A model generated the notes under the pieces. That model saw only the letters and a program-made list of their open reading frames with translations, searched no databases and was not told where the DNA came from. From contig JAJPHE010000010.1 of NCBI GenBank assembly GCA_021325435.1, forward strand, positions 8,647 through 72,646: a stretch of 64,000 bases of DNA. Reading direction: 5' to 3'. The translations under genes and the position numbers were made by a program. Numbering within the stretch: position 1 is the stretch's first letter; each line of letters opens with the position of its first letter. Origin of the DNA: Actinomycetota bacterium (GTDB lineage Bacteria > Actinomycetota > Acidimicrobiia > Acidimicrobiales > JAJPHE01). Of the stretch, positions 43,783 to 60,067 are shown in pieces.

Positions 43783-44576
43783 CCGCCACCGCTCTCTCCA
43801 GTCCGACCGCGCCGGGCCGGGCGTTCCTCGCCGTGCTGCGCCGCGACGTGCACGTCACCGCCCACGACCTTCCCACCTTCCTCGCCCAGGTCATCCTGCA
43901 GCCCCTGTTCCTGCTGTTCGTGTTCGGCAAGGTGCTCGGCAGCCTCGGCTACACCCGGGGCGGCTACGCCAACCTGCTCTTCCCCGGGCTGGTCGCCCTC
44001 ACCGCCGTCATCACCGGCATGCAGTCGCTGGCCTTTCCGTTGGTGGCCGAGTTCGGCTGGACGATGGAGATCGAGGACCGCCTGCTGGCCCCGATGAGCA
44101 CGGCCCTGGTGGCGGCCGAGAAGGTGCTGTTCGCCACCCTCCGGGCCATCACCGCCTCGGTGGTCATGATCCCCGTCGGCATCCTGGTGCTCGGCTCCAT
44201 CCCGTGGCGCTGGTCGGCCCTCGGCTTGTTCGCGGTGATCGTCATCCTCGGCTCGCTGCTGGGCGCGGCCATGGGCCTGGTGATCGGCACGTCCGTGCAG
44301 CCCCCGCAGATCAACATCGTGTTCACCTTGGTGTTCACCCCGCTGCTCTTCACCGGCTCCAGCCAGTACCCGTGGCCGTCGCTGTCCCGCCTGCCGTGGT
44401 TCAAGGTCGTAACCGCCATGAACCCGATGACCTACGTGAGCGAGGGGCTGCGGGCCGCCATGGTCCCCCGAGTGCCCCACATCGAGCCGTGGATCTGCGT
44501 CAGCGTGCTCGTCGGCTCGTTGCTGGTGCTGATGACGGTCGGCGTGCGCGCCTTCTACCGCCGGGCCATCACCTGA
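43779..44576 (+). CDS. ABC-2 permease (DrrB-like); probable CTG start
   Basis: CTG at 43779 overlaps the upstream TGA and lies 8 nt after GGGAGG; the alternative GTG start at 43833 would truncate the N-terminus. Confidence 0.88.
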   Translation: MTATALSSPTAPGRAFLAVLRRDVHVTAHDLPTFLAQVILQPLFLLFVFGKVLGSLGYTRGGYANLLFPGLVALTAVITGMQSLAFPLVAEFGWTMEIEDRLLAPMSTALVAAEKVLFATLRAITASVVMIPVGILVLGSIPWRWSALGLFAVIVILGSLLGAAMGLVIGTSVQPPQINIVFTLVFTPLLFTGSSQYPWPSLSRLPWFKVVTAMNPMTYVSEGLRAAMVPRVPHIEPWICVSVLVGSLLVLMTVGVRAFYRRAIT

Positions 44577-45835
44577 GCCGTCCCCTCGTCGACCACCACG
44601 GTCGCCTCGACCGCCGGCTGGTGGCGGTCATGGCCGTGGCCACCGGCCTGGCCGTGGCCAACAACTACTACGCCCAGCCCCTGCTGCCCGCCATCGGCCG
44701 CGACCTCCACCTGCGCCCGGGAGTCGCCGGCCTCATCGTCACCGCCGCCCAGGTCGGCTACGCCCTTGGCCTCATGTTCCTGCTCCCGCTCGGCGATCTG
44801 GTCGAGCGCCGCCGGCTCATGGTGCTGCTCGCCCTGGGCACCGGCGCCGCCCTGGTGTGGATGGGCGTGGCGCCCAACGGTGCCGTTCTCCTGCCCGCCG
44901 CTCTCGCCGTCGGGGCCATGTCCGTGCTGGCCCAGGTGCTGGTGCCGTTCTCGGCGTCGCTGGCGCCCGAGCACGAGCGGGGGCGGGTGGTCGGCATGGT
45001 CATGAGCGGGCTGTTGATCGGCATCCTCCTGGCCCGCACGGTGGCCGGATACCTGGCCGAGACGGGAAGCTGGCGGGTGGTGTACTTCGCCGCCGGGGCG
45101 GCGATGCTCGCCCAGGCCGTCGTGCTGCAACGACAGCTGCCCACCTGGCGGGAGGAGCCCGGCCTCACCTACCCCCGACTCGTCGCGTCCGTCGTCGCCC
45201 TTCTGCGCCGCGAGCCCGTCCTACGCCTGCGCGGCGTCTACGGGCTGCTGTCGTTCGGGACCTTCAGCGTGCTGTGGACCTCGGTCGCCTTCCTCCTCGC
45301 CCACCACTACCGGTACTCGACGGGGACCATCGGCCTGTTCGGGCTGGCCGGGGCGGCCGGCGCTGTCACCGCCACCGCCGCCGGCCGGCTGTCGGACCGG
45401 GGCGGCGCCCCCCGCTCCACGCTGGTGACCAACGTGGCCCTGGTCGTCTCGTGGGCGGCGCTGTGGGCCGGCGGGCGCAGCGTGGCCGCTTTGGTGGTCG
45501 GCATCGTGGTGCTCGACGTCGGCAGCCAGGGGTTGCACATCACCAATCAGGGCGAGATCTACCGACTGCACGCCGAGGCCCGCAGCCGGCTCACCGCCGC
45601 CTACATGGTGATGTTCTTCATCGGCGGGGCCACCGGGTCCGTCCTGTCCGCCACCCTCTACGAAGTCTGGGGTTGGAACGGGGTGTGCCTGGTGGGGGCG
45701 GCCTACGCGGTGGCGTCGCTGACCGTGGCTCTCGTCGTGGGCGTGGGCCAGCACCAACCTGGCCGCCCCGCGCCCGCGACTGCAGATGCGCTCAGGAGCC
45801 CGGCCCGCTCTCCTGAATTTTCTGACGGCGGATAG
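44573..45835 (+). CDS. MFS transporter; start uncertain (CTG 44573, GTG 44621 or ATG 44630)
   Basis: MAVATGLAVANNYYAQPLL, PLGDLVERRR, GRVVG and SRLTAAYM; about 12 TM segments. Confidence 0.9.
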   Translation: MSRPLVDHHGRLDRRLVAVMAVATGLAVANNYYAQPLLPAIGRDLHLRPGVAGLIVTAAQVGYALGLMFLLPLGDLVERRRLMVLLALGTGAALVWMGVAPNGAVLLPAALAVGAMSVLAQVLVPFSASLAPEHERGRVVGMVMSGLLIGILLARTVAGYLAETGSWRVVYFAAGAAMLAQAVVLQRQLPTWREEPGLTYPRLVASVVALLRREPVLRLRGVYGLLSFGTFSVLWTSVAFLLAHHYRYSTGTIGLFGLAGAAGAVTATAAGRLSDRGGAPRSTLVTNVALVVSWAALWAGGRSVAALVVGIVVLDVGSQGLHITNQGEIYRLHAEARSRLTAAYMVMFFIGGATGSVLSATLYEVWGWNGVCLVGAAYAVASLTVALVVGVGQHQPGRPAPATADALRSPARSPEFSDGG

Positions 45836-45946: not shown

Positions 45947-46243
45947 TCACGGCCGGTTGGCGAGCTCCAGGTCGGTCACCTCACCGTCGTCGGTGAACAC
46001 GGCCGTGAACCGGTGCTCGTCGCCGCCCGCCGACGGCCACGCCACCCCGGTCACCTCGTTTCCGTCCACGTCGTCCGACCGGACGACGACGCCTGCGCCC
46101 AGGCGGGCCTCCACGGCCGCCACCAGGTTGGCGAAGGCGTCAGCTCAGAGGTCTCATCAGAAGTGGTACCAGTGCCCGCCGATCTCCTCGTCGACGTCAC
46201 CCCACGTGGAGCCGCACAAGGCGCACGGTTGGCCCTTCGTCAC
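45947..46243 (-). CDS. Putative tri-selenocysteine protein with a TRASH/YHS-like (Ta0938-like) motif CxxC-x18-UUxxU, 98 aa
   Basis: GTG 46243 overlaps the upstream TGA with SD GGAGG; MTKGQPCALCGSTWGDVDEEIGGHWYHF-TGA-TGA-D-L-TGA-ADAFANLVAAVEARLG...ELANRP-TGA. In-frame TGAs are at 46159-57, 46156-54 and 46147-45. selAB are in the window. Confidence 0.82.
46102..46138 (-). promoter_or_regulatory. Candidate in-frame bacterial SECIS element(s)
   Basis: Two alternative hairpins just 3' of the TGAs: GCCUUC-GCCA-[ACCUGG]-UGGC-GGCCGU-GGAGGC and GGC-GGCC-[GUGGA]-GGCC-C-GCC. Confidence 0.5.
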
Positions 46244-46986
46244 CGGCGCTCACCTCCTTCGGCCTGCTCGGCGTCGATCCGGTTGGCCAGGCGCCAGACG
46301 GCGTCCATCATGCGGCGCAGGCGGGCCATCGACTCGGCCAGCACGGCGAGGATCTCGTCTTGGCGCTCCGGCGGGGTGTGGCGGGCGATGATCTCCACCG
46401 TCTCGTGGCCGTGGCCGGCGTCGGCCTGGTCGCTCACCTCGAAGAACTCGAGGCTGTCGTCGTCGATGCCGAGGGCCCGGGCGTAGGGCTCGGGGTCGAG
46501 CCCGGTGCCGGCGGACAGCCCGTAGGCGGCGGGCAGGTTGCGGTCGCCCAGGATCTCCAGGCCGTTGACGGCGGTAAACCCGACCAGCCAGTCCGGGTGG
46601 CGGGCCTGCTCCCACAGCCAATCGAAGGCGTCGGCCGCCTCGGGTAGGGGCGGGTGGGACTCGATCTCGGCCCGGGTGAGCCCGACGCTCTCACCGAGGC
46701 GCACCAGCAGCTGGTAGTGGTTGTCGTCGCCGGCGGGGTCGCGCACCACCTCGGACATGAGGTTCTCGACCTCGTAGGCGATGACGGAGAACTCGGGGCA
46801 GTTCGAGATGATCGACCCGACCCAACGCGGGAACAGCCGGGAGAACTTCGTCCACTGCAGCACGAAGGCGCGGATCACCCCGACGGTCGGCGCCGAGGCC
46901 ATGGCGGCGATGAGGGCGGGCGGGTGGCGGAACCAGCTGTCGACCACCAGCTGCTCGACCCGGGGGCCCATGGGGTTGTCGCTCAC
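46240..46986 (-). CDS. PqqC/CADD/TenA-like heme-oxygenase-like dimetal (HDO) protein
   Basis: GTG 46986 overlaps the upstream TGA; FPRWVGSIISNCP, ENLMSE...NHYQLL, NGLE and FFEVSDQADAGHG. Confidence 0.8.
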   Translation of the reverse strand: MSDNPMGPRVEQLVVDSWFRHPPALIAAMASAPTVGVIRAFVLQWTKFSRLFPRWVGSIISNCPEFSVIAYEVENLMSEVVRDPAGDDNHYQLLVRLGESVGLTRAEIESHPPLPEAADAFDWLWEQARHPDWLVGFTAVNGLEILGDRNLPAAYGLSAGTGLDPEPYARALGIDDDSLEFFEVSDQADAGHGHETVEIIARHTPPERQDEILAVLAESMARLRRMMDAVWRLANRIDAEQAEGGERR

Positions 46987-47195
46987 CGTCTCACCCGCTG
47001 GCTGCCCACAGTACGACCCGACAGCGCTCCGGCCAGCAGCGGCGCCAACTCCTCGGCGCTGACCCGGTGCTTGGTGACCCGCCGGTTGAGCCACATCACG
47101 TGGCGCCCGTCGCTGGCCTCGGCCCGCTCCACGAGATGGGCGGCCAGCGCCTCGAGGTCGGGCGCCGGCGCCGCGCACACCGGGCAGGCGTCCAT
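46983..47195 (-). other. C2H2-like zinc-finger module (70 aa), possibly also translated separately from ATG 47195
   Basis: CxxC-x12-H-x11-H; GGAG 9 nt upstream of the internal ATG. Confidence 0.65.
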
Positions 47196-48140
47196 CTTCT
47201 CCGGCTCCGTCGCATCGGCGGCGGCACCCGCCGATGAGGAGGCCGGCGCCCGCCGGCTGGCCAGCAGGCCGATGCCCACCCAGGCCAGGTCGACGAGGAG
47301 ATCCCACAGCCGCAGGGCCACCGACAGGGCGGCGGCGTTGCCGAACCCGTAGCGCGAGGAGAGGGTGAGGGCCAGCACGCCTTCGCGCACGCCGAGGCCT
47401 CCGGGGGCGATGCTGACCAGCCCGGCCACGGCGGCGGCGTTGAACGCCCCGACCAGCGGGCCCACGTCGCCCAGGTGGACGGGCAGGAGGGCGGCGGCCA
47501 GGGCGACGAACGCGCCCGACCGCACGACCGAGTTGAGCCCGTACCAGGCGGCGGCCCGGTAGGTGGGCACGGTCCCCTCGGGGCCCCGCAGGGGCGCCGG
47601 CAGCCGGGGGACGAGGGCGGCGGCGATCCGCAGCCCGGCGGGCAGCGCCACCAGGATGAGGACCCCCCCGGCGGCGACGAGGGCCCGGGCCCAGGCGGCC
47701 AGCACCGAGGAGGGCAGCAGGGCGCCGGTCAGGACCGAGCCCCACGCCACGATGACGCCCACCTCGACGGGCAGCGACCAGCCGGCGAGGAAGCGGGGCA
47801 CGCCCTCCCGCCCGGCCAGCACCACCCGGGTGGCCAGAGCGGCCGCCCCCGTCGGCACGTACCGGCTGATCTGGGCCAGCCACCACACCCGCAGGGCCCG
47901 GCCGAGGGGCAGGGCCGACCCGTAGGCGGCCAGCAGCGAGCGCCACCCGACCGGCAGGAGGAGGCCCCCGGCCACGCTGGCCGGGGCGGCCAGGGCGAAC
48001 CAAACCGGGCGGACCCGCAGGTGGATGTGGCGCAGGGAGCTCACGTTGTCGGCGCCGACCCGCACCACCACCACCGCCACCCCGGCCACCAGGGCGAGGC
48101 GGAGCCCCCACGCCCCCCACCGGCGCAGCCCGGGGCTCAC
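46983..48140 (-). CDS. Lysylphosphatidylglycerol-synthase-TM/flippase-like membrane protein fused in frame to a C2H2-like zinc-finger module
   Basis: GTGA overlap at 48140; SRYVP and APGGLGVREG motifs; no stop before MDACPVC...AAHL...DGRHVMWLNR. Confidence 0.8.
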   Translation of the reverse strand: MSPGLRRWGAWGLRLALVAGVAVVVVRVGADNVSSLRHIHLRVRPVWFALAAPASVAGGLLLPVGWRSLLAAYGSALPLGRALRVWWLAQISRYVPTGAAALATRVVLAGREGVPRFLAGWSLPVEVGVIVAWGSVLTGALLPSSVLAAWARALVAAGGVLILVALPAGLRIAAALVPRLPAPLRGPEGTVPTYRAAAWYGLNSVVRSGAFVALAAALLPVHLGDVGPLVGAFNAAAVAGLVSIAPGGLGVREGVLALTLSSRYGFGNAAALSVALRLWDLLVDLAWVGIGLLASRRAPASSSAGAAADATEPEKMDACPVCAAPAPDLEALAAHLVERAEASDGRHVMWLNRRVTKHRVSAEELAPLLAGALSGRTVGSQRVRR

Positions 48141-49258
48141 CGGCCCAGCACCCGCCGGTAGGCGGCGGCGTGGGCCTCGGCCACCGCCGCGGGGTCGTGG
48201 GCGGCCACCGCGGCGGCGGCGGTGACGGCGGGCAGGGGCAGCCGGCGCAGGGCGGCGGCCAGGGCGTCGGGGTCGTCGGGGGGAACGAGGACGCCGTCGT
48301 CGCCGACCGTCTCGACCAACCCCCCCACCGCGCTGGCCACCACCGGCCGGCCCCGGGCCAGGGCGTCGACGGCGATGAGGCCGAGGCCCTCCCGCCGGCT
48401 GGGGACCACCAGGGCGTGCGCCTCGTCGATGCGGCGCACCAGGTCCGGGCGGCCGCCCGCCCCCACCAGCTCGACGGCGCCGGACGCCGAGGCCAGGGCC
48501 CGCAGGGGCGCCTCGAGGGGACCGTCGCCCATCAGCACCAGGCGCACCGCGAACCCGTCGGCTGCCAGCCGGTTGACGGCGGAGATGGCGACGTCGAACC
48601 CCTTCTCGGGCATGAGCCGGCCGCAGGCGAACAGCCGCAGCGGGGGGTGGGGCGGCAGGGCCGCCGGCGGCGCCGGGTCGGGCACCACCGGCATGCGCAG
48701 CACCTCCACGGCCCCCCCGGTCACCCCCGCCACCTCGGAGGCCAGGGCGTCGGACACGGCGGCGACCAGGGCGGCCCGGCGCAGCACGGCCCGGGCTACG
48801 GGCCGCAGGCGGGGGCGGCCGGCCAGGTGGACGTCGGAGCCGTGGCAGGTGACGACGAGGGGCACGCCGGCGGCCCGGGCCGCCACCACGCCGGCGGCCC
48901 CGGCGGGCAGCCACCAGTGGGCGTGGACCAGGTCGACCCGCTGGCGGCGGGCGGCCCGGCCGGCGGCGGCGGCGAAGGCGGCGAGGAAGCCGGGGAGGGC
49001 GGCGGCCCCGACCGGGGTGGTGGCGGTGCGCATCAGGCCGCCCTGGTAGGCGAGGACCTGGAGCCCTTCGGGGGCGTAGCGGAAGCGGTGCACCGGCGCC
49101 CCGATGACGTCGTCCTCGGGCAACCCCGGCGCGTGGGGGGCCAGCACCGACGGGGAGATCCCGGCGCGGGTCTGGGCGGCCACCAGCTCGGCCAGGTAGG
49201 GAGCCTGGTGGTCCCCCTCCCACCGGGGGAACGAGGACGTGAGGTGGAGGACCTTCAC
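48137..49258 (-). CDS. GT4-family glycosyltransferase
   Basis: TSSFPRW, HAHWW, VTCHGSD, GRLMPEKG and EGLGLIAVDALARG (atypical EX7D). Confidence 0.92.
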   Translation of the reverse strand: MKVLHLTSSFPRWEGDHQAPYLAELVAAQTRAGISPSVLAPHAPGLPEDDVIGAPVHRFRYAPEGLQVLAYQGGLMRTATTPVGAAALPGFLAAFAAAAGRAARRQRVDLVHAHWWLPAGAAGVVAARAAGVPLVVTCHGSDVHLAGRPRLRPVARAVLRRAALVAAVSDALASEVAGVTGGAVEVLRMPVVPDPAPPAALPPHPPLRLFACGRLMPEKGFDVAISAVNRLAADGFAVRLVLMGDGPLEAPLRALASASGAVELVGAGGRPDLVRRIDEAHALVVPSRREGLGLIAVDALARGRPVVASAVGGLVETVGDDGVLVPPDDPDALAAALRRLPLPAVTAAAAVAAHDPAAVAEAHAAAYRRVLGR

Positions 49259-49270
49259 CGCGTCAACCGG

Positions 49271-51496
49271 TCACCGGGTCACCCGCACGTGCAGCCACAG
49301 CGGCGGGGTGGAGGCGTCGAAGGTGGTGACGCTCTCCTGGATGAGCGACATCCGCACGTCGTAGTCGCCGGGCGGCAGGGGGCGCCCGCCCGGCCCTTCC
49401 GGGTCGAGCACGGCTGCGACCGAGGCGGAGCGGCCCGGCAGGAGGGTGGTGGGCAGGTCGGCCCGCCCGGTCGCCACCGCCTCGGAGTCGGAGCGGTGGG
49501 AGGAGCCGGCGGGGAACCACCACACGCCGACCCGCACCGCGTAGCGGGGGACGGTCCCGACGCTGGACGCGTCGGGCCAGGGGGAGCCGGCCCCGAGGTG
49601 CACGAGGCGCACCTCGACGGTCACCTGCCCGCCGGCGGCCACGTTGAGGGTCGAGCCGGGCGTCCCCGCCGGCGACTCCAGGGTGATCGATCCCCGCTCC
49701 GCCGAGGTCGGCAGGGGGGCGGGGAATCCGGCGGGCAGCAGCCACCCGGCGGCGTCGAGGCGAGACTGGAGCGGCCCGGGCAGGACCCACACCGCCTCGG
49801 GTGAGTGCCCGTAGCTGACCAGGCGGGCCCCGGAGTAGACGGCGTGGCGGGCCGACAGGTCGCGGGCGGCGGCGACCAGGGGCGAGCAGGGGGCCTGGGC
49901 CTTGGTCGAGTCGAAGACCACGAACGGGACGGTGGGGTCGAACAGGCGGGAGTCGAAGAAGTTCCAGTCGTCGCCGGTCGACACGTCCCAGCCCACGCAG
50001 CCCGGGTCGCCGAACTGGCTCTGGACGGCGACCAGCTTGGCCGGCAGGGCCCGCTCGGTGTGGGCCGCCACCGACTGGCCGACCACCACGGACTGGCCGT
50101 AGGCGGTGGCCGGCACGAACACGGCGACCACGGCGGCGGCGCCGGCCACCGCCCGCCACCGGTAGAGCAGGACCACGGCGAGGGTCGCCCCCAGCCCGGC
50201 GGCGGCGAACAGCCACACCTCGAGGGCGCCGCCGGTCAGGCGGAACAGATGGTCGACGGCGAAGGTGTTCGTCTGCTGCACGACGCCGGTGACCCGCGCC
50301 CCCCGGTAGACGGTCACCGCCGCGCTCGTCACCAACAGGCCAGCGACGGCCAGGCCGATGGCGGCCCGCCGGGGCCGGGGTCCCCACCGGCCCGCCGCTG
50401 CCACCGCCCCGACCAGCATCACCGGCACCGCCACCACCTCGACGTAGCGGCCGTAGATGGCGATGTCGACCCGCTGGGCTCCCCCCAGCACCACGGCGGA
50501 CAGGCCGGCCACGCCCAGCAGGCAGAAGCCGAGGAAGCCGGCGAGCACGGTGCGGGCCCGGGGCAGGGCCGCCACGCCGAGGGCGACGAGCCCGGCGCTG
50601 CCGACCAGCAGGTAGAGCAGCTCGCCGGCGCCCACCCCGAGGGCCCGACCGATCCCGCCGGCGGACAGGGTCCGGCTGGCGACGGCGCCGGCGCCCGCCC
50701 CGGCGTGGGGGAGGTGCTGGCTCGGCACCACCTTGGTCACCCACAGGGTGAAGGCCTCGGACAGGCCGACCACCACCGCGGCCACGCCGCCCGTCTGGGC
50801 GAGGAGGCGGGCGTTGGGCCCCCACGGGCGCAGGGCCCAGGCCGCGGCGAGCACCACCCCGACGGTCACCACCGCGGCCCGAGGGTGCACCGCCACCAGG
50901 GCGGCCGACGCCCCGGCGGCGGCCGGCCACCACCGCCGGTCGGCGCCGGCCCGCGCCACCAGCAGGCACACGGCGAGGATGCCCGGCACCAGCAGGTTCT
51001 CCGACTCGACGATGTTCGAGTAGAGGACGATCGGCGGGAAGGCGGCCACGGCCAGGGTGGCGCCGACCCACAGCCCGGTGGACCCCCGGGGGGCCAGCCG
51101 GCGGGCCAGGGCGTAGAGCAGGACGGTGGTGACCCCGGCCAGCACGGCGTTGAGGTCGAGGGCGAGGCGGTAGACGGTGGCCGGGGTGCTGGAGATCCAC
51201 CACAGCGGCACCAGCAGCACCGGGTAGCCGGGGGCGTACGGCATTCCCGGGCGGGGGCCGCCGTGGGCGAGCCAGTGGGCGTCCATCAGATAGCCGAACT
51301 CGTCGGCCTGCACGATCGGGGTGCGCATCGAGCGCGACAGGGCGAGGTGGACCCCGACGGTGAGGAAGAACAGCACCGGTGGCACCAGCCCGGCGGCCAG
51401 GATGGCGGGCTTGGGGACCGGGCGGGTCGTGCCGGCAGGGGGGTCCCACCCGGCCACGATCTCCGGCGACTTGGCGCGGGGCGGGGACGTGGGCAC
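49271..51496 (-). CDS. Large polytopic membrane protein (GT-C-like) with C-terminal extracellular domain
   Basis: ADEFGYL early loop, YAPGYPVLL, more than 10 TM segments, GRY and a soluble C-terminal beta-rich region. Confidence 0.7.
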   Translation of the reverse strand: MPTSPPRAKSPEIVAGWDPPAGTTRPVPKPAILAAGLVPPVLFFLTVGVHLALSRSMRTPIVQADEFGYLMDAHWLAHGGPRPGMPYAPGYPVLLVPLWWISSTPATVYRLALDLNAVLAGVTTVLLYALARRLAPRGSTGLWVGATLAVAAFPPIVLYSNIVESENLLVPGILAVCLLVARAGADRRWWPAAAGASAALVAVHPRAAVVTVGVVLAAAWALRPWGPNARLLAQTGGVAAVVVGLSEAFTLWVTKVVPSQHLPHAGAGAGAVASRTLSAGGIGRALGVGAGELLYLLVGSAGLVALGVAALPRARTVLAGFLGFCLLGVAGLSAVVLGGAQRVDIAIYGRYVEVVAVPVMLVGAVAAAGRWGPRPRRAAIGLAVAGLLVTSAAVTVYRGARVTGVVQQTNTFAVDHLFRLTGGALEVWLFAAAGLGATLAVVLLYRWRAVAGAAAVVAVFVPATAYGQSVVVGQSVAAHTERALPAKLVAVQSQFGDPGCVGWDVSTGDDWNFFDSRLFDPTVPFVVFDSTKAQAPCSPLVAAARDLSARHAVYSGARLVSYGHSPEAVWVLPGPLQSRLDAAGWLLPAGFPAPLPTSAERGSITLESPAGTPGSTLNVAAGGQVTVEVRLVHLGAGSPWPDASSVGTVPRYAVRVGVWWFPAGSSHRSDSEAVATGRADLPTTLLPGRSASVAAVLDPEGPGGRPLPPGDYDVRMSLIQESVTTFDASTPPLWLHVRVTR

Positions 51497-53800: not shown

Positions 53801-54397
53801 ATGGCGGGCGTGAGGGTCGCCGTTGTCGTCGCCGCCCTCGGGGCTGCCGCCACCCTGGCCGCCTGCGGGGTGCCGACCGACTCCCACCCGGTGGATCTGG
53901 CCAGCGGCGACGTCCCCTTCGGGTTGGTGGGGGGCCGGGCGTTCACCGACACGACTCTGCCCGGGCCCAACACCCCGGTGTCCCTGGTGCAGGTGTACTT
54001 CGTCTCCGGTGACCGCCTGGTCGCCGCCGGGCGGGCGGTTCCCAGCCCGGCCACCCTCGAACGCTCGCTGACCTCGTTGCTCGCCGGGCCCACGCCGAAG
54101 GAGGCCGACGCCGGCATCCGCTCGGCGATCGGCGAGGACACCACCGTGCTCGACGCCCGGGTGGCGGCGGGCCGGGCCGCCATCGACCTGTCGGCCTCCT
54201 TCGCCGACAGCGAGGGGGCCGACCAGATCCTCGCCGTGGGCCAGCTCGTCTACACGGCCACCGCCCTGCCCGGGGTGGGGGAGGTCAGCTTCGAGCTGGC
54301 CGGCGTTCCGGTGGCGGTGCCGGCGGCGGACGGCACCCTGCAGAGCGAGCCGGTGACCCGCCAGCAGTACGCCCCGCTGCTGGTTCCCGGCGGCTGA
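53801..54397 (+). CDS. GerMN-domain lipoprotein
   Basis: Lipobox LAAC, VYFV, LLAGPT..E...GIRSAI and QLVYTAT. Confidence 0.85.
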   Translation: MAGVRVAVVVAALGAAATLAACGVPTDSHPVDLASGDVPFGLVGGRAFTDTTLPGPNTPVSLVQVYFVSGDRLVAAGRAVPSPATLERSLTSLLAGPTPKEADAGIRSAIGEDTTVLDARVAAGRAAIDLSASFADSEGADQILAVGQLVYTATALPGVGEVSFELAGVPVAVPAADGTLQSEPVTRQQYAPLLVPGG

Positions 54398-54407
54398 GCG
54401 GGCCGGG

Positions 54408-54671
54408 CTACTCGGTGCTGTCCGCCCCGCAGGTGGGGCAGGGGCCTCCGGCGTGGATCTCCGAGCGGAGCAGGTTGGTGCCGGCCCCGTCGAGGGACAC
54501 CTCGAGCCGCCCGGTGTCGCGGTCGACGGTCACCTCGGCGTACGGGCGCCACTCGATGCTGCCCGTGGCCAGGGGCACCCCGCGGGGCACCCGGGCGAAC
54601 CGGCGCCGGCCGGTGTCGAACGCCCACGTGGTGGTGCAGGATTCGGCGAGAAGGAGGTCGGTGGTCGTCAT
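54408..54671 (-). CDS. Small hypothetical protein with C-terminal H-x4-CxxC
   Basis: 87-aa ORF with typical codon use. Confidence 0.6.
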   Translation of the reverse strand: MTTTDLLLAESCTTTWAFDTGRRRFARVPRGVPLATGSIEWRPYAEVTVDRDTGRLEVSLDGAGTNLLRSEIHAGGPCPTCGADSTE

Positions 54672-54738
54672 AGCGGTTTCTCTGAGCTACCCGGATCCTG
54701 GCAGACCTAACAGGGCAGAGTCGAGGAGAATTGACGCC

Positions 54739-55416
54739 GTGCCGGCACGGATCCTGATCGTGGAGGACGACGAGCGGATCCGGGCTTCCACCCGCCTGGC
54801 CCTCGAGGACGAGGGCTACGACGTCGACGAGGCGGGGACGGCCGAGGAGGCCCTCACCGCCTTCGGCCCCCACGACGTGGTGCTGGTCGACCTCATGCTG
54901 CCCGGGGCCGACGGCTTCGAGCTGTGCCGCCTCCTGCGGCGCGAGAGCGGCGTGCCCATCGTCATGGTGACGGCCCGTTCCGACACCCACGACGTGGTCG
55001 CCGGCCTCGAGGCCGGCGCCGACGACTACGTGACCAAGCCGTTCGTGGTGAAGGAGCTGTCGGCCCGCATCCGGGCCTTGCTGCGTCGGGCCCGGGCCGG
55101 CGGAGCAGGGCCGGCCACCGCCCTGACCTTCGGCAACCTCGAGATCCGCCCCGACGCCGGCGAGGTCCGCCTCGACGGGCGGACGGTGCACCTGACCCGC
55201 ACCGAGTTCCACCTGCTGTGCGAGCTGGCCGAGAACGCCGGCAAGGTCCTGTCCCGCGAGCAGCTGCTCGAGCGGGTGTGGGGCTACGGGTACTTCGGCG
55301 ACGCCCGGCTGGTGGACGTGCACGTCCGGCGGCTGCGGACCAAGGTGGAGCGCGACCCGGCGGCTCCCACCCACGTCGTGACCGTCCGGGGCCTCGGCTA
55401 CAAGCTGGCCCCGTGA
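54739..55416 (+). CDS. OmpR-family response regulator (CseB/MtrA-like)
   Basis: GTG at 54739; VEDD, DLMLPG, GADDYVTKPF and VDVHVRRLRTK. Confidence 0.95.
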   Translation: MPARILIVEDDERIRASTRLALEDEGYDVDEAGTAEEALTAFGPHDVVLVDLMLPGADGFELCRLLRRESGVPIVMVTARSDTHDVVAGLEAGADDYVTKPFVVKELSARIRALLRRARAGGAGPATALTFGNLEIRPDAGEVRLDGRTVHLTRTEFHLLCELAENAGKVLSREQLLERVWGYGYFGDARLVDVHVRRLRTKVERDPAAPTHVVTVRGLGYKLAP

Positions 55417-57035: not shown

Positions 57036-58325
57036 GTGAGGCCCCCCTCCGTCGACGCCGTGGCCCGGTCCCTGTCCGACCTGGGGCTCCCCCACCCCCT
57101 GCTGGTCGACGCCGCCCGCGAGGCGATCGCCGCCGGCGACCCGGACTCGGCCCGCCAGCGGGCGACGATGGTGGCCCGGGCCCTGCTCCGACCGGTGATC
57201 AACGCCACCGGCGTGCTGCTCCACACCAACCTGGGGAGGGCCCCGCTCGAGGTCCACCATCCCGCCCGCTACACCAACCTCGAGCTGGACCTGGCCACCG
57301 GCCGGCGGGGATCGCGCAGCGCCCATGCCGCCGCCCTCCTGGCCCGGGCGGCGGGGGCGGAGGCGGCCCTGGTCGTCAACAACGGCGCCGGCGCCGTGCT
57401 CCTGGCCCTGGCCGCCCTGGCCGCCGGGCGCTCGGTCGTGGTCAGCCGGGGCGAGCTGGTCGAGATCGGCGGCGGGTTCCGCATCCCGGAGGTGATGGCC
57501 GGATCCGGCGCCCGCCTGGTGGAGGTGGGCACCACCAACCGGACCCGCCTCGGGGACTACCGGGCCGCCCTCGACGACGACGTGGCCGTGGTGCTCAAGG
57601 TGCACCAGTCCAACTACCGCATCGTCGGGTTCACCGAGGACGTGGGGCTGGCCGCCCTGGCCGGGCTGGGCCCGCCCGTCGTCTACGACATCGGATCCGG
57701 GCTGCTCGACGAGGCCACCCCCTGGCTGACCGGCGGACCGCCCCGCTGGCTGGCCGGGGAGCCGGCCGCCCGCCAGTCGCTCGAGCGGGGGGCGGCGCTG
57801 GTCACCTTCTCCGGGGACAAGCTGCTGGGCGGCCCCCAGGCCGGCGTCATCGCCGGCCGCTCCGACCTGGTCGCCGCCTGCGCCCGCCACCCGCTGGCCC
57901 GGGCCCTGCGCCCCGGCCCCCTGGTGCTGGCCGCCCTGCAGGAGACCGCCCTCGCCTACCTCGACCGCCGGGGCGAGGACATCCCGTTCTGGCGGATGGC
58001 CACCACCCCGCCGGCCGAGCTGCGCCGCCGGGCCGAGCGTCTGGCCGCCGCCGTGCCCGGCGGCGAGGTGGTGGACTGCGCGTCGACCCCCGGGGGCGGA
58101 TCGCTTCCGGGCCTCGAGATCCCGTCGGTGGGGGTGGCCCTGGCCGGCGACCACGCCGCCGCCCTGCGCCAGGCCCCGGTGCCGGTCATCGCCCGGGTGT
58201 CCGACGGGCGCACCGTCGCCGACCTGCGGGCCGTGGACCCGGCCGACGACGCTGCCCTGGGCCAGGCCCTGGCCGCCGCGGCAGCCCACGGCAGGGGCAG
58301 CGGCGACAGCGGCAGCGCCGGCTAG
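57036..58325 (+). CDS. selA: L-seryl-tRNA(Sec) selenium transferase
   Basis: VINATGVLLHTNLGRAP, VVNNGAGA, SRGELVEIGGGFRIP, EVGTTN and FSGDKLLGGPQAG (PLP Lys). Confidence 0.96.
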   Translation: MRPPSVDAVARSLSDLGLPHPLLVDAAREAIAAGDPDSARQRATMVARALLRPVINATGVLLHTNLGRAPLEVHHPARYTNLELDLATGRRGSRSAHAAALLARAAGAEAALVVNNGAGAVLLALAALAAGRSVVVSRGELVEIGGGFRIPEVMAGSGARLVEVGTTNRTRLGDYRAALDDDVAVVLKVHQSNYRIVGFTEDVGLAALAGLGPPVVYDIGSGLLDEATPWLTGGPPRWLAGEPAARQSLERGAALVTFSGDKLLGGPQAGVIAGRSDLVAACARHPLARALRPGPLVLAALQETALAYLDRRGEDIPFWRMATTPPAELRRRAERLAAAVPGGEVVDCASTPGGGSLPGLEIPSVGVALAGDHAAALRQAPVPVIARVSDGRTVADLRAVDPADDAALGQALAAAAAHGRGSGDSGSAG

Positions 58326-58330
58326 GCCCA

Positions 58331-60067
58331 GTGCACGTCGTCGCCACCGCCGGCCACGTCGACCACGGCAAGTCGACGCTGGTGCTGGCCCTCACCGGCA
58401 CCGACCCCGACCGCTTCGCCGAGGAGAAGGCCCGGGGCCTCACCATCGACCTCGGCTTCGCCTGGATGGCCCTGCCCTCGGGGGCCGAGCTGGCCTTTGT
58501 GGACGTCCCCGGCCACGTCCGGTTCATCAAGAACATGCTGGCCGGGGTGGGGGCGGTCGACGCCTGCGTCTTCGTCGTGGCCGCCACCGAGGGCTGGAAG
58601 CCTCAGTCCGAGGAGCACCTCCGCATCCTCGAGCTGCTCGGGGTCACCCACGGGCTGGTCGCCCTCACCAAGGTGGGGCTGGTCGACGAGGAATGGGAGG
58701 CGTTGGCCCGCATGGAGGTGGCCGACCACCTGGCCGGCACCTTCCTCGAGGACGCCGACGTCGTCGGGGTCGACGCCGTGGCCGGGCGGGGGGTCGGGGA
58801 GCTGGTCGCCGCCCTCGACCGGCTGGTCGGCTCCACCCCCACGTCGGCCGACCGGGGCCGGCCCCGGCTGTGGGTCGACCGGGCCTTCGCCGCCCGGGGG
58901 GCGGGGACGGTGGTGACCGGCACCCTGGCCGGCGGCCAGCTCGCCGTCGACGACGAGGTCGAGCTGGTCCCCGCCCCGGGGCGGTCGCCGCTGCGGGTCC
59001 GGGCCCTCCAGTCCCACGGCCGGCCCCGCGACCGGGTCGGCCCCGGCCACCGGGTGGCGGTGAACGTGGCCGGGGTGTCCCACGACCGGGTGGGGCGGGG
59101 CCAGGCCCTCGTCCGCCCGGGCCAGTGGGCGCCCACCAGCGTGTTCGACGCCTCCCTCGCCGTCCTGGCCGGGCTGGACCACGACGTCAGCCGGCGGGGC
59201 GCCTACCACGCCTACCTCGGCTCGGGCGAGCACCCCGCCCGTATCCGCCTGCTGGGGCCGGAGTCCATCCCCCCCGGCGGCGCCGGCCTGGTGCGGGTCC
59301 ACCTGCCCACGGCCCTGCCCCTGCTGCCCGGCGACCGCTACGTGCTGCGCGAGTCCGGCCGGGCCGAGACCGTCGGAGGCGGGGAGATCCTCGACGTGGC
59401 CCCGGTGCTGCCGGCGGCCCGGGCCCGTCCCGACCGCTCGGTCGACCGGGTGGTGGCCGAGCGGGGCTGGGTGGACGCCGGACTATTGGAGCGGCTGACC
59501 GGCGAGGCCCGGGCCCCCGACGTCGGGCGGTGGGTGGTGGCCCCGGCCGCCCTGGCCGAGACGGTCGGGACGGTGCGCCGGGCGGTGGCCGAAGCCGGGC
59601 CGCTGGGGCTGGACGTGGCCTCGCTCACCGACCGGCAGCGGGCCGTCCTCGACCGCCTGGACGACGTGGTCGTCGACGCCGGGCGGGCCCGGCCGTCAGC
59701 GGCGGCGGACGCCTCGGCCCAGCTGGGGTCCCACCCCTACGTGGCCGCCCTCGAGGCGGCGCCGTTCACCCCACCCCCGCCCGACGGGGTGGACCGGGCC
59801 GAGCTCTCCCAGCTGGTGCGGCGGGGCCTGGTCGTGGAGCGCGACGGCTGCTACTTCGCCCCGGCGGCGGTGGACGCCGCCGGCCGGCGCATCGCCGCCC
59901 TCCTCGTGGACCGGCCCGACGGGGTGACGGTGGCCGAGGTGCGCGACGCCCTGGGCACGACCCGCAAGTACCTGCTGCCGCTGCTGGCCCACCTCGACGC
60001 CACCGGCGTCACCCGACGGCGCGGCGACCTGCGGGTCGGGGGGCCACGGCTGCCGCAACCCGCCTGA
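58331..60067 (+). CDS. selB: Selenocysteine-specific elongation factor
   Basis: AGHVDHGKST, EEKARGLTIDLGF, DVPGHVRFIKNML and C-terminal winged helix RDALGTTRKY..PLL..LD. Confidence 0.96.
   Translation: MHVVATAGHVDHGKSTLVLALTGTDPDRFAEEKARGLTIDLGFAWMALPSGAELAFVDVPGHVRFIKNMLAGVGAVDACVFVVAATEGWKPQSEEHLRILELLGVTHGLVALTKVGLVDEEWEALARMEVADHLAGTFLEDADVVGVDAVAGRGVGELVAALDRLVGSTPTSADRGRPRLWVDRAFAARGAGTVVTGTLAGGQLAVDDEVELVPAPGRSPLRVRALQSHGRPRDRVGPGHRVAVNVAGVSHDRVGRGQALVRPGQWAPTSVFDASLAVLAGLDHDVSRRGAYHAYLGSGEHPARIRLLGPESIPPGGAGLVRVHLPTALPLLPGDRYVLRESGRAETVGGGEILDVAPVLPAARARPDRSVDRVVAERGWVDAGLLERLTGEARAPDVGRWVVAPAALAETVGTVRRAVAEAGPLGLDVASLTDRQRAVLDRLDDVVVDAGRARPSAAADASAQLGSHPYVAALEAAPFTPPPPDGVDRAELSQLVRRGLVVERDGCYFAPAAVDAAGRRIAALLVDRPDGVTVAEVRDALGTTRKYLLPLLAHLDATGVTRRRGDLRVGGPRLPQPA

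Follow-up and report, generated by a model that had tools for sequence, protein, structure and literature searches.

The closest described relatives of the genes reported here are two archaeal proteins known from structural genomics. These are Ta0938 of Thermoplasma acidophilum (Protein Data Bank (PDB) code: 2FQH), after which the Ta0938 family (Pfam PF11494) is named, and SSO2700 of Sulfolobus solfataricus (PDB code: 4LQX), a TENA/THI-4 domain protein whose structural-genomics entry carries no assigned function. Literature searches for Ta0938, 4LQX, SSO2700, HVO_1752, TRASH-domain selenoproteins and the selenoproteome of the Acidimicrobiia returned nothing on function. Here we describe homologues of both proteins in a stretch of 64,000 nucleotides (nt) from Actinomycetota bacterium JAJPHE01 (Acidimicrobiales; assembly GCA_021325435.1, contig JAJPHE010000010.1, positions 8,647–72,646), hereafter the window. 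Together with a zinc-finger gene they form a compact trio on the minus strand, and the Ta0938-family gene contains three in-frame TGA codons that we read as selenocysteine (Sec, U). Our best explanation of the whole, to which we give a probability of roughly 0.6, is that the trio is an autonomous cassette, that Sec is genuinely incorporated with the help of a bipartite selenocysteine insertion sequence (SECIS), and that the Sec/Cys cluster of the small protein would act as the redox or metal partner of a heme-oxygenase-like (HDO) enzyme.

The small protein shares with Ta0938 its family, its length and a layout in which C-x2-C-G-(S/A)-T-W-G and a later F-C-C-x2-C precede a helix and a beta domain. 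Only Cys is found at these positions in Ta0938 and the other full-length members in databases, whereas in the clade of the window one to three of the Cys residues at the helix N terminus are Sec. The peptide VVRSDD, which corresponds to an RNA hairpin described below, is also restricted to the Sec clade. The HDO enzyme has a domain homologous to that of SSO2700, and the zinc-finger protein aligns with N-terminal residues 20–75 of 4LQX, which are the same zf-C2H2_9 module; in both enzymes the first His of the H-x3-D-x2-H motif is not His. Zinc finger and enzyme are one chain in SSO2700, whereas here they are two overlapping genes, with the zinc finger in frame with a membrane protein.

More distant relatives of the enzyme include the 4-aminobenzoate synthase CADD (PDB codes: 1RCW and 8VA9), UndA, BesC, FlcD and PolF, with which it has in common a heme-oxygenase-like fold of seven helices and five metal ligands that align. 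Identity is 16% at the structural level, and a Ser stands in place of His174. We know of no HDO enzyme that has been described with a dedicated partner of the Ta0938 or zinc-finger type. For Sec insertion in bacteria, the textbook rule is one UGA, one adjacent SECIS and a fixed spacing.

A coupled three-gene cassette

The trio extends from 47195 to 45947 on the minus strand and, as read from open reading frames and translations, has the order zf-C2H2_9 gene, HDO gene, Ta0938-family gene. The zinc-finger protein (zf-C2H2_9, DUF5810; 46983–47195) runs from an ATG at 47195 to a TGA at 46983 and has 70 amino acids (MDACPVC...HL...HVMWLNR). The HDO enzyme, the SSO2700 homologue (46240–46986), has 248 amino acids between a GTG at 46986 and a TGA at 46240, and the Ta0938-family selenoprotein (45947–46243) has 98 amino acids between a GTG at 46243 and a TGA at 45949–45947, with the three internal TGA codons read as U. 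Both junctions are GTGA overlaps (46986–46983 between zinc finger and HDO, 46243–46240 between HDO and Sec gene). An initial interpretation of the window made from the letters and open reading frames (the sequence-only reading) had described this chaining of three minus-strand units, as well as the identity of the products as a C2H2-like zinc finger, a PqqC/CADD-like HDO enzyme and a TRASH-like, Sec-rich protein; the overlaps are confirmed at these positions, and the domain identities proved correct by Pfam, profile and fold matches.

To collect related loci we used the HDO enzyme as bait, which avoids bias, and recovered 15 loci from genomes of Acidimicrobiia and 20 from metagenomes. The gene-neighbourhood check that had been proposed for the HDO homologues gave a uniform result, with the trio kept together at every locus that has enough flanking sequence. 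In every locus with enough downstream sequence, the small Sec gene lies directly 3′ of the HDO gene and has TGA at the same codons. The junction between zinc finger and HDO is a 4-nt overlap in about 20 of 21 loci, and at the junction between HDO and Sec gene nearly all loci fall between an overlap of 14 nt and a gap of 3 nt, the exception being one (L024) with a gap of 21 nt. Genes flanking the trio differ at every relative locus, and include those for mycothiol transferase, methylmalonyl-CoA mutase, major facilitator superfamily (MFS) transporters, permeases, a Gcn5-related N-acetyltransferase (GNAT), enoyl-CoA hydratase and glutaminyl-tRNA synthetase (GlnRS). In the window, the genes upstream on the same strand encode a class A penicillin-binding protein, a family 4 glycosyltransferase (GT4) and an LPG_synthase_TM-like membrane protein (Pfam). 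The placement of the trio at the end of a long envelope operon, as suggested by the sequence-only reading, thus holds within the window and fails in the relatives. Because the flanking genes of the relatives are unrelated, the envelope setting is incidental and the trio is, from comparison of the loci, an autonomous, translationally coupled cassette. Another 27 independent assemblies contain this trio and have their TGAs at identical codons, which places the arrangement far beyond chance.

Selenocysteine codons in a Ta0938-family gene

The three TGA codons form a cluster at 46145–46159 on the minus strand (UGA29, 46159–46157; UGA30, 46156–46154; UGA33, 46147–46145). The protein that includes them passes the Pfam Ta0938 model (PF11494) with 62.6 bits against a cut-off of 27 (E 4.7e-17), and the match covers residues 6–92 (profile positions 3–89 of 92), spanning the TGAs. 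Its motif is C7-x2-C10 ... F-U29-U30-D-L-U33, and in the alignment to 2FQH over residues 3–83, HFUUDLUADAF stands opposite FFCCDICAAEF. A search of 1.84 billion representative proteins found 54 representatives for the whole Ta0938 family; the FFCC..C motif occurs in every full-length homologue, and U29, U30 and U33 align to Cys in 18 full-length Cys homologues.

Including that of the window, we obtained 28 intact copies of the Sec gene, the 27 others coming from Acidimicrobiia genomes and metagenome contigs. The cluster reads U-U-x-x-U in 17 copies, C-U-x-x-U in 10 and C-U-x-x-C in one. Codon 30 is TGA in all 28, codon 33 is TGA in 26 of the 27 copies besides that of the window, and codon 29 has switched between Cys and Sec at least seven times on the HDO tree. 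Past TGA30, the frame remains open for about 65 codons, with conserved amino acids and continuing synonymous change, and it ends in TAA, TAG or TGA after about 95–118 codons (mostly 95–103), at a similar place in most copies. There is no conserved start codon 3′ of the cluster. Protein databases hold merely N-terminal fragments of 29 amino acids and C-terminal fragments of 45–60 amino acids of these genes, from which we conclude that gene callers truncate them.

Two metagenome copies deviate. The single-Sec variant C-U-x-x-C (L048:999–1134, contig Ga0075017_100200022) keeps the invariant GGUC hairpin described below, and so identifies position 30 as the core site for Sec. The other (L041:1038–1173, contig OFHJ01008013.1) reads C-U-x-x-U, loses both similarity and frame after codon 33 and is probably decayed or chimeric.

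The genome encodes the machinery for Sec insertion. About 11 kb from the cassette, on the plus strand of the window, lie selA (L-seryl-tRNA(Sec) selenium transferase; 57036–58325; TIGR00474 at 417 bits, over its cut-off; Pfam SelA, E 8.7e-105) and selB, for the Sec-specific elongation factor (58331–60067; TIGR00475 at 263 bits, over its cut-off). The SelB protein has Pfam domains GTP_EFTU, Beta-barrel_SelB and SelB-wing_3, the last being the C-terminal winged-helix domain that binds the SECIS. Outside the window, selD (contig C65:37510–38430, minus strand) exceeds its curated cut-off and has one in-frame TGA, making it itself a selenoprotein (GAG-U-ACK). ARAGORN found no tRNA in the 64-kb window and predicted two tRNA-Sec genes with anticodon TCA on other contigs of the 4.0-Mb draft genome (C66:13136–13231 and C125:2207–2307).

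The sequence-only reading had regarded the TGAs as Cys codons recoded to Sec. The alignment to Cys, the 28 copies, the toggling of codon 29 and the Sec machinery together strongly support this view, and UGA29, UGA30 and UGA33 can be read as genuine Sec codons. An alternative genetic code and a pseudogene were both considered and rejected, because the gene is conserved and the genome encodes the Sec machinery.

A bipartite RNA element behind the UGAs

A 72-nt element made up of two hairpins, H1 and H2, starts 3 nt past the last UGA (RNAalifold). Hairpin H1 of this putative SECIS (46088–46141, minus strand) is 54 nt long and has the base helix GACGCCU.CGCC / GGYG.AGGCGUC. Hairpin H2 (46070–46087, minus strand) follows directly with GUCGUCC-GGUC-GGACGAC, its loop at 46080–46077, and encodes V-V-R-S-D-D. 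The same loop, GGUC, occurs in Escherichia coli fdhF.

Conservation of the element is visible at both the RNA and the codon level. Across 28 sequences, the H1 base helix is 91.6% paired and the interior varies in sequence while always remaining paired. Within H1, codons A38 (GCC) and G51 (GGC) have a synonymous entropy of zero. H2 is 98.5% paired, with one compensatory change from G-C to A-U and a folding energy of -10.8 kcal/mol, and its stretch GTCCGGTCGGA is identical in all 28 copies. In a codon alignment of 16 sequences, V54 is GTC in 15 of 15, and all 16 use CGG for R55 and TCG for S56. Synonymous entropy is therefore zero at these three codons, compared with 1.5–2.0 bits where Ser, Arg, Val or Gly is encoded elsewhere in the gene. 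Confinement of the VVRSDD peptide to the Sec clade is what would be expected if the RNA dictates the codons. The combined structure is 94% paired over the 28 sequences versus 23–61% with slid partners, single-sequence minimum-energy folds recover the same layout in nearly all copies, and its mean z-score against dinucleotide shuffles is -4.06 (26 of 28 sequences below -2). The nearer hairpins that had been proposed at first (46138–46107) were rejected as the conserved element, since they are only 57% paired in the relatives and do no better than shuffles.

The bacterial SECIS consensus of Zhang and Gladyshev, as summarized in a review (PMC13188914), places a small apical loop with G first at 16–37 nt past the UGA. 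Compared with that canonical form (E. coli fdhF type), H2 satisfies the rules for the stem (7 base pairs (bp)), for the loop (G first, then G/U; here 4 nt, GG and then U) and for folding energy. It differs in that a conserved 54-nt hairpin is interposed, which leaves the loop 64, 73 and 76 nt past UGA33, UGA30 and UGA29, respectively, and in that three UGAs, including an adjacent pair, apparently depend on a single element. Net spacing falls to 10–22 nt only when H1 is counted as closed, in which case the distance from UGA30 is 12 + 7 = 19 nt.

Other Sec genes of the same genome provide a scale for these distances. In fdhA, the loop lies 18 nt past the UGA. The UGA of selD precedes a 19-nt (8-bp) hairpin and then a GGCGCA-GGUCA-UGCGCC hairpin at 32 nt, a miniature of the H1/H2 layout. 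When the whole genome was scanned for hairpins with a GGUC loop 3′ of TGAs in open frames, 241 candidates emerged, nearly all of them noise in this GC-rich genome; among them was a DsbA-like selenoprotein gene outside the window, which was then checked by hand (U-P-W-C, within VWSDYL-U-PWCYVG; contig C148, TGA at about 79674, plus strand). The hairpin of this gene is canonical, and its UGGAUC loop begins 19 nt past the UGA. An Rfam scan of the window at gathering thresholds returned no match.

H2 resembles canonical hairpins that bind SelB and is the probable SelB-binding hairpin. We hypothesize that SelB decodes the UGAs through the bipartite 72-nt element, in which a folded H1 would be a collapsible spacer that brings H2 to about 19 nt net from UGA30, as in the fdhA and DsbA-like genes. 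The spacing provided by H1 may also leave H2 unmelted while the ribosome passes all three UGAs.

The Cys/Sec centre of the small protein

The structural model of the Sec protein (predicted local distance difference test (pLDDT) 85) arranges the five-Cys/Sec centre as a knuckle, a beta-hairpin and a helix N terminus. Sec is confined to the three positions at the helix end, and C7 and C10 are never Sec. An invariant C-x-L-C-G-S-T-W-G motif adjoins the Cys/Sec cluster. The spacing C-x2-C-x18-[C/U]-x3-U is close to the C-x2-C-x19-22-C-x3-C of TRASH and YHS domains, and Pfam scores fall below the gathering cut-offs for both (TRASH_HVO_1752_C, 26.2 versus 27; YHS, 20.2 versus 30.3); the protein is thus TRASH-like, and by score not a member.

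Substitution of Sec for Cys in short metal or redox motifs, including CU and UxxU, is shared with the YHS-domain selenoprotein NF041384, with MbdU (NF045648) and with the UxxU ‘metal-binding protein’ NF041115. The window protein is distinct from all three, as no NCBIfam model matches its Cys-substituted form at E ≤ 1. An identity with MbdU was rejected, since NF045648 is an unrelated model of 468 positions without a match anywhere in this genome. One protein of 490 amino acids from the representative search (P0147) joins a Ta0938 domain to an Abhydrolase_3 esterase/lipase; it may be a true fusion protein or the product of two gene calls merged into one, and is uninformative on function.

The HDO enzyme

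The HDO protein matches Pfam Haem_oxygenas_2 (PF14518) with 63.2 bits against a cut-off of 28.9, and also TENA_THI-4 (PF03070). A profile search gave 4LQX as the best sequence match (E 7e-27) and aligned CADD (1RCW) as well. It reached PqqC chains only at E 1e-4, outside that family, and the score to TIGR04305, the CADD family, was 48 bits against a cut-off of 200. The AlphaFold model (pLDDT 93) has the heme-oxygenase-like helical fold; its best fold match is 4LQX, with a template modelling (TM) score of 0.84, followed by CADD at 0.73, and there are further matches to PqqC, BesC, UndA, FlcD and PolF.

In the profile alignment to 1RCW, residues E79, H90, E144, D189 and H192 align to E81, H88, E142, D178 and H181 of CADD, which are metal ligands there; their numbering was checked on the alignment. 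All five positions are invariant across 25 homologues. The position of CADD His174 is an invariant Ser (Ser185) in these enzymes and Gly in 4LQX, and one metal site would therefore have an open position.

Distribution and all-Cys relatives

None of the 60 nearest genomes searched has the Sec protein, and a sample of 401 genomes from the class contained only 2 that do; the cassette is rare and patchy. In all-Cys loci (L032, L036/37 and L039), a fusion of zinc finger and HDO is followed by the Ta0938 gene, whereas an archaeal contig with TFIIB and archease genes (L033–L035) has the all-Cys order HDO, Ta0938, zinc finger. PF11494 also matches in Sulfolobus acidocaldarius. The sequence-only reading had placed a similar all-Cys three-gene neighbourhood in thermoacidophilic archaea. 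That placement is borne out by Ta0938 of Thermoplasma, by the S. acidocaldarius match, by the zinc finger–HDO fusion of 4LQX and by the gene order in L033–L035. The sequences are best explained by an all-Cys cassette in archaea and some other lineages, of which the Cys-Cys-x-x-Cys motif appears to have acquired one to three Sec in a rare clade of Acidimicrobiia.

Proposed function and alternatives

Sec is costly and is normally found at chemically active positions, for which reason the five-Cys/Sec treble-clef centre of the small protein may be a reactive metal or redox site. We hypothesize that the small protein serves the HDO enzyme, which is short of one of the six dimetal ligands, by donating electrons or delivering metal. 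The sequence-only reading had put forward three possible roles for the small protein, as metal chaperone, electron donor or peptide substrate of the HDO enzyme. The zinc-finger module would work in cis with the enzyme, because it is fused to the HDO domain in most all-Cys versions. For the function, our first choice is that the small protein is dedicated to supplying the HDO enzyme with electrons or metal, with the zinc finger in cis, and we consider this to have close to an even chance of being right. Among possible roles we infer a ranking in which electron donation or metal delivery to the HDO enzyme precedes soft-metal trafficking or sensing, and the latter precedes a role as substrate or scaffold.

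The second of these roles would make the Ta0938-like protein a trafficking or sensing protein of the TRASH/YHS type for metals or metalloids (for example, Cu, Hg or As), with Sec aiding the binding and exchange of soft metals and with an HDO protein that is metal-independent or regulatory. We regard this as unlikely. The weak matches to TRASH_HVO_1752_C and YHS speak for it, but they lie under the Pfam cut-offs. One all-Cys locus adjoins ArsB and a low-molecular-weight phosphatase of the arsenate-reductase type, although this neighbourhood is on the opposite strand and represents one of five contexts, and the genes beside the cassette include no conserved metal transporter or regulator. That the HDO protein lacks one canonical ligand also speaks for this role, but the invariance of five of the six dimetal ligands argues for a metal site in the HDO protein itself. 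Also in favour, many of the recent bacterial selenoproteins in a 2026 review of prokaryotic families belong to families that handle metals, and include a YHS-domain protein, a P-type ATPase HMA domain, a CobW-related protein and mercuric transport proteins (PMC13188914).

Somewhat less probable again is that the HDO enzyme uses the small protein as its substrate or scaffold, and that the Cys/Sec cluster or the GSTWG residues are oxidized to a protein-derived cofactor or product, comparable to the self-sacrificing CADD and to the formation of PQQ from PqqA. The closest characterized relatives would fit, as CADD consumes protein residues and PqqC finishes a peptide-derived cofactor, and so would the tight one-to-one coupling of the genes with its conserved overlaps and the invariant C-x-L-C-G-S-T-W-G motif beside the cluster. 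However, the small protein is predicted to be a folded, two-domain protein of 100 amino acids with a solved homologue, rather than a leader–core peptide; the surroundings lack a conserved gene for maturation, such as one for a protease or transporter; and three Sec insertions would be a very costly investment in a substrate consumed stoichiometrically.

That the TGAs are ordinary stops, the gene a pseudogene or two small open reading frames and the hairpin a terminator or chance structure is nearly excluded, because the division of the locus by gene callers, the loss of frame in L041 just past codon 33 and the position of the hairpin outside the consensus SECIS distance are set against three stops that coincide precisely with Cys columns and occur at no other position, TGA30 in every copy, downstream amino-acid conservation with synonymous change, the toggling of codon 29, the absence of a conserved start 3′ of the cluster and the complete Sec machinery of the genome.

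Several observations weigh against the cassette reading that we prefer, in which a Sec protein decoded through H1 and H2 partners the HDO enzyme. PqqC and TenA, which have the HDO fold, operate metal-free, and the enzyme of the cassette may likewise not be a dimetal oxidase; it keeps five of the six ligands of the HDO signature (E, H, E, H-x3-D/E-x2-H). The fold search with the Ta0938-like model gave no match at E ≤ 0.001 and a weak NTF2/cystatin-like resemblance. True compensatory changes in the RNA element are few (three pairs), which we attribute to the element being highly conserved and also protein-coding. We found no public RNA run for the locus, which is contained in one DNA run. Finally, the distance of 64–76 nt departs from the 16–37 nt of the SECIS spacing rule (PMC13188914).

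Novelty and implications

A term search of the text and table of the 2026 review found no PF11494 and no motif resembling [C/U]-U-x-x-U (PMC13188914). For Sec proteins of the Ta0938 type, the term search of the review table gave no entry and NCBIfam has no matching model, and the gene is consequently split into fragments in public annotations; this type would be an added selenoprotein family. Sec in metal motifs is already known; new variations on it are the cluster of three Sec with its tandem UGA, a putative SECIS that is bipartite and displaced, and the proposed partnership with an HDO enzyme. Joined into a single statement, these features would describe a new selenoprotein family with the densest known bacterial Sec cluster (up to three Sec in five codons, with a tandem UGA-UGA), a new SECIS architecture with a collapsible 54-nt spacer hairpin that keeps a canonical SelB hairpin within reach during the passage over all three UGAs, and a Sec cluster that marks where redox or metal catalysis takes place in an uncharacterised HDO oxidase system of three components, common to archaea and bacteria. 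We hold this joint statement tentatively, at somewhat less than even odds.

Decoding of tandem or near-tandem UGAs would challenge the textbook rule of one UGA and one SECIS, and the conserved bipartite element offers a concrete, mutable model for SelB acting at a distance and repeatedly. Substitution by Sec almost always flags a chemically active residue, and the Cys-Cys-x-x-Cys of Ta0938 is therefore likely to be a working site and not a purely structural zinc site. This would offer a way into the function of 2FQH and 4LQX, both orphan structures from structural genomics, and of a conserved HDO partner system.

The zinc finger and flanking genes

The zinc-finger protein passes Pfam PF16293 (zf-C2H2_9) with 59.7 bits against a cut-off of 29. 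Its CPVC, HL and HVMW segments are conserved in at least 20 relatives, in keeping with a C-x2-C ... H ... H layout. Thirteen of 14 relatives have an in-frame stop 5–92 codons upstream of the zinc finger, which is therefore a stand-alone gene in them. In the window, the open reading frame of the LPG_synthase_TM-like (flippase-like) membrane protein (47196–48140, minus strand) continues without a stop into the zinc-finger module, and 46983–48161 is a single frame in which Pfam places LPG_synthase_TM at residues 25–283 and zf-C2H2_9 at residues 323–374. In this genome, the region 46983–48140 (minus strand) thus encodes a fusion of membrane protein and zinc finger. A free zinc finger of 70 amino acids is also possible, as the internal ATG at 47195 is preceded by GGAG.

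The run of envelope genes in the window includes two minus-strand open reading frames, at 49263–51449 (728 amino acids) and 54250–55374 (374 amino acids), that have no Pfam match at E ≤ 1e-5. Perhaps by chance, given the abundance of MFS genes, an MFS transporter gene adjoins the cassette both in the window (44561–45835, plus strand, convergent) and at two related loci (L016:1091–3337 and L023:1613–2983).

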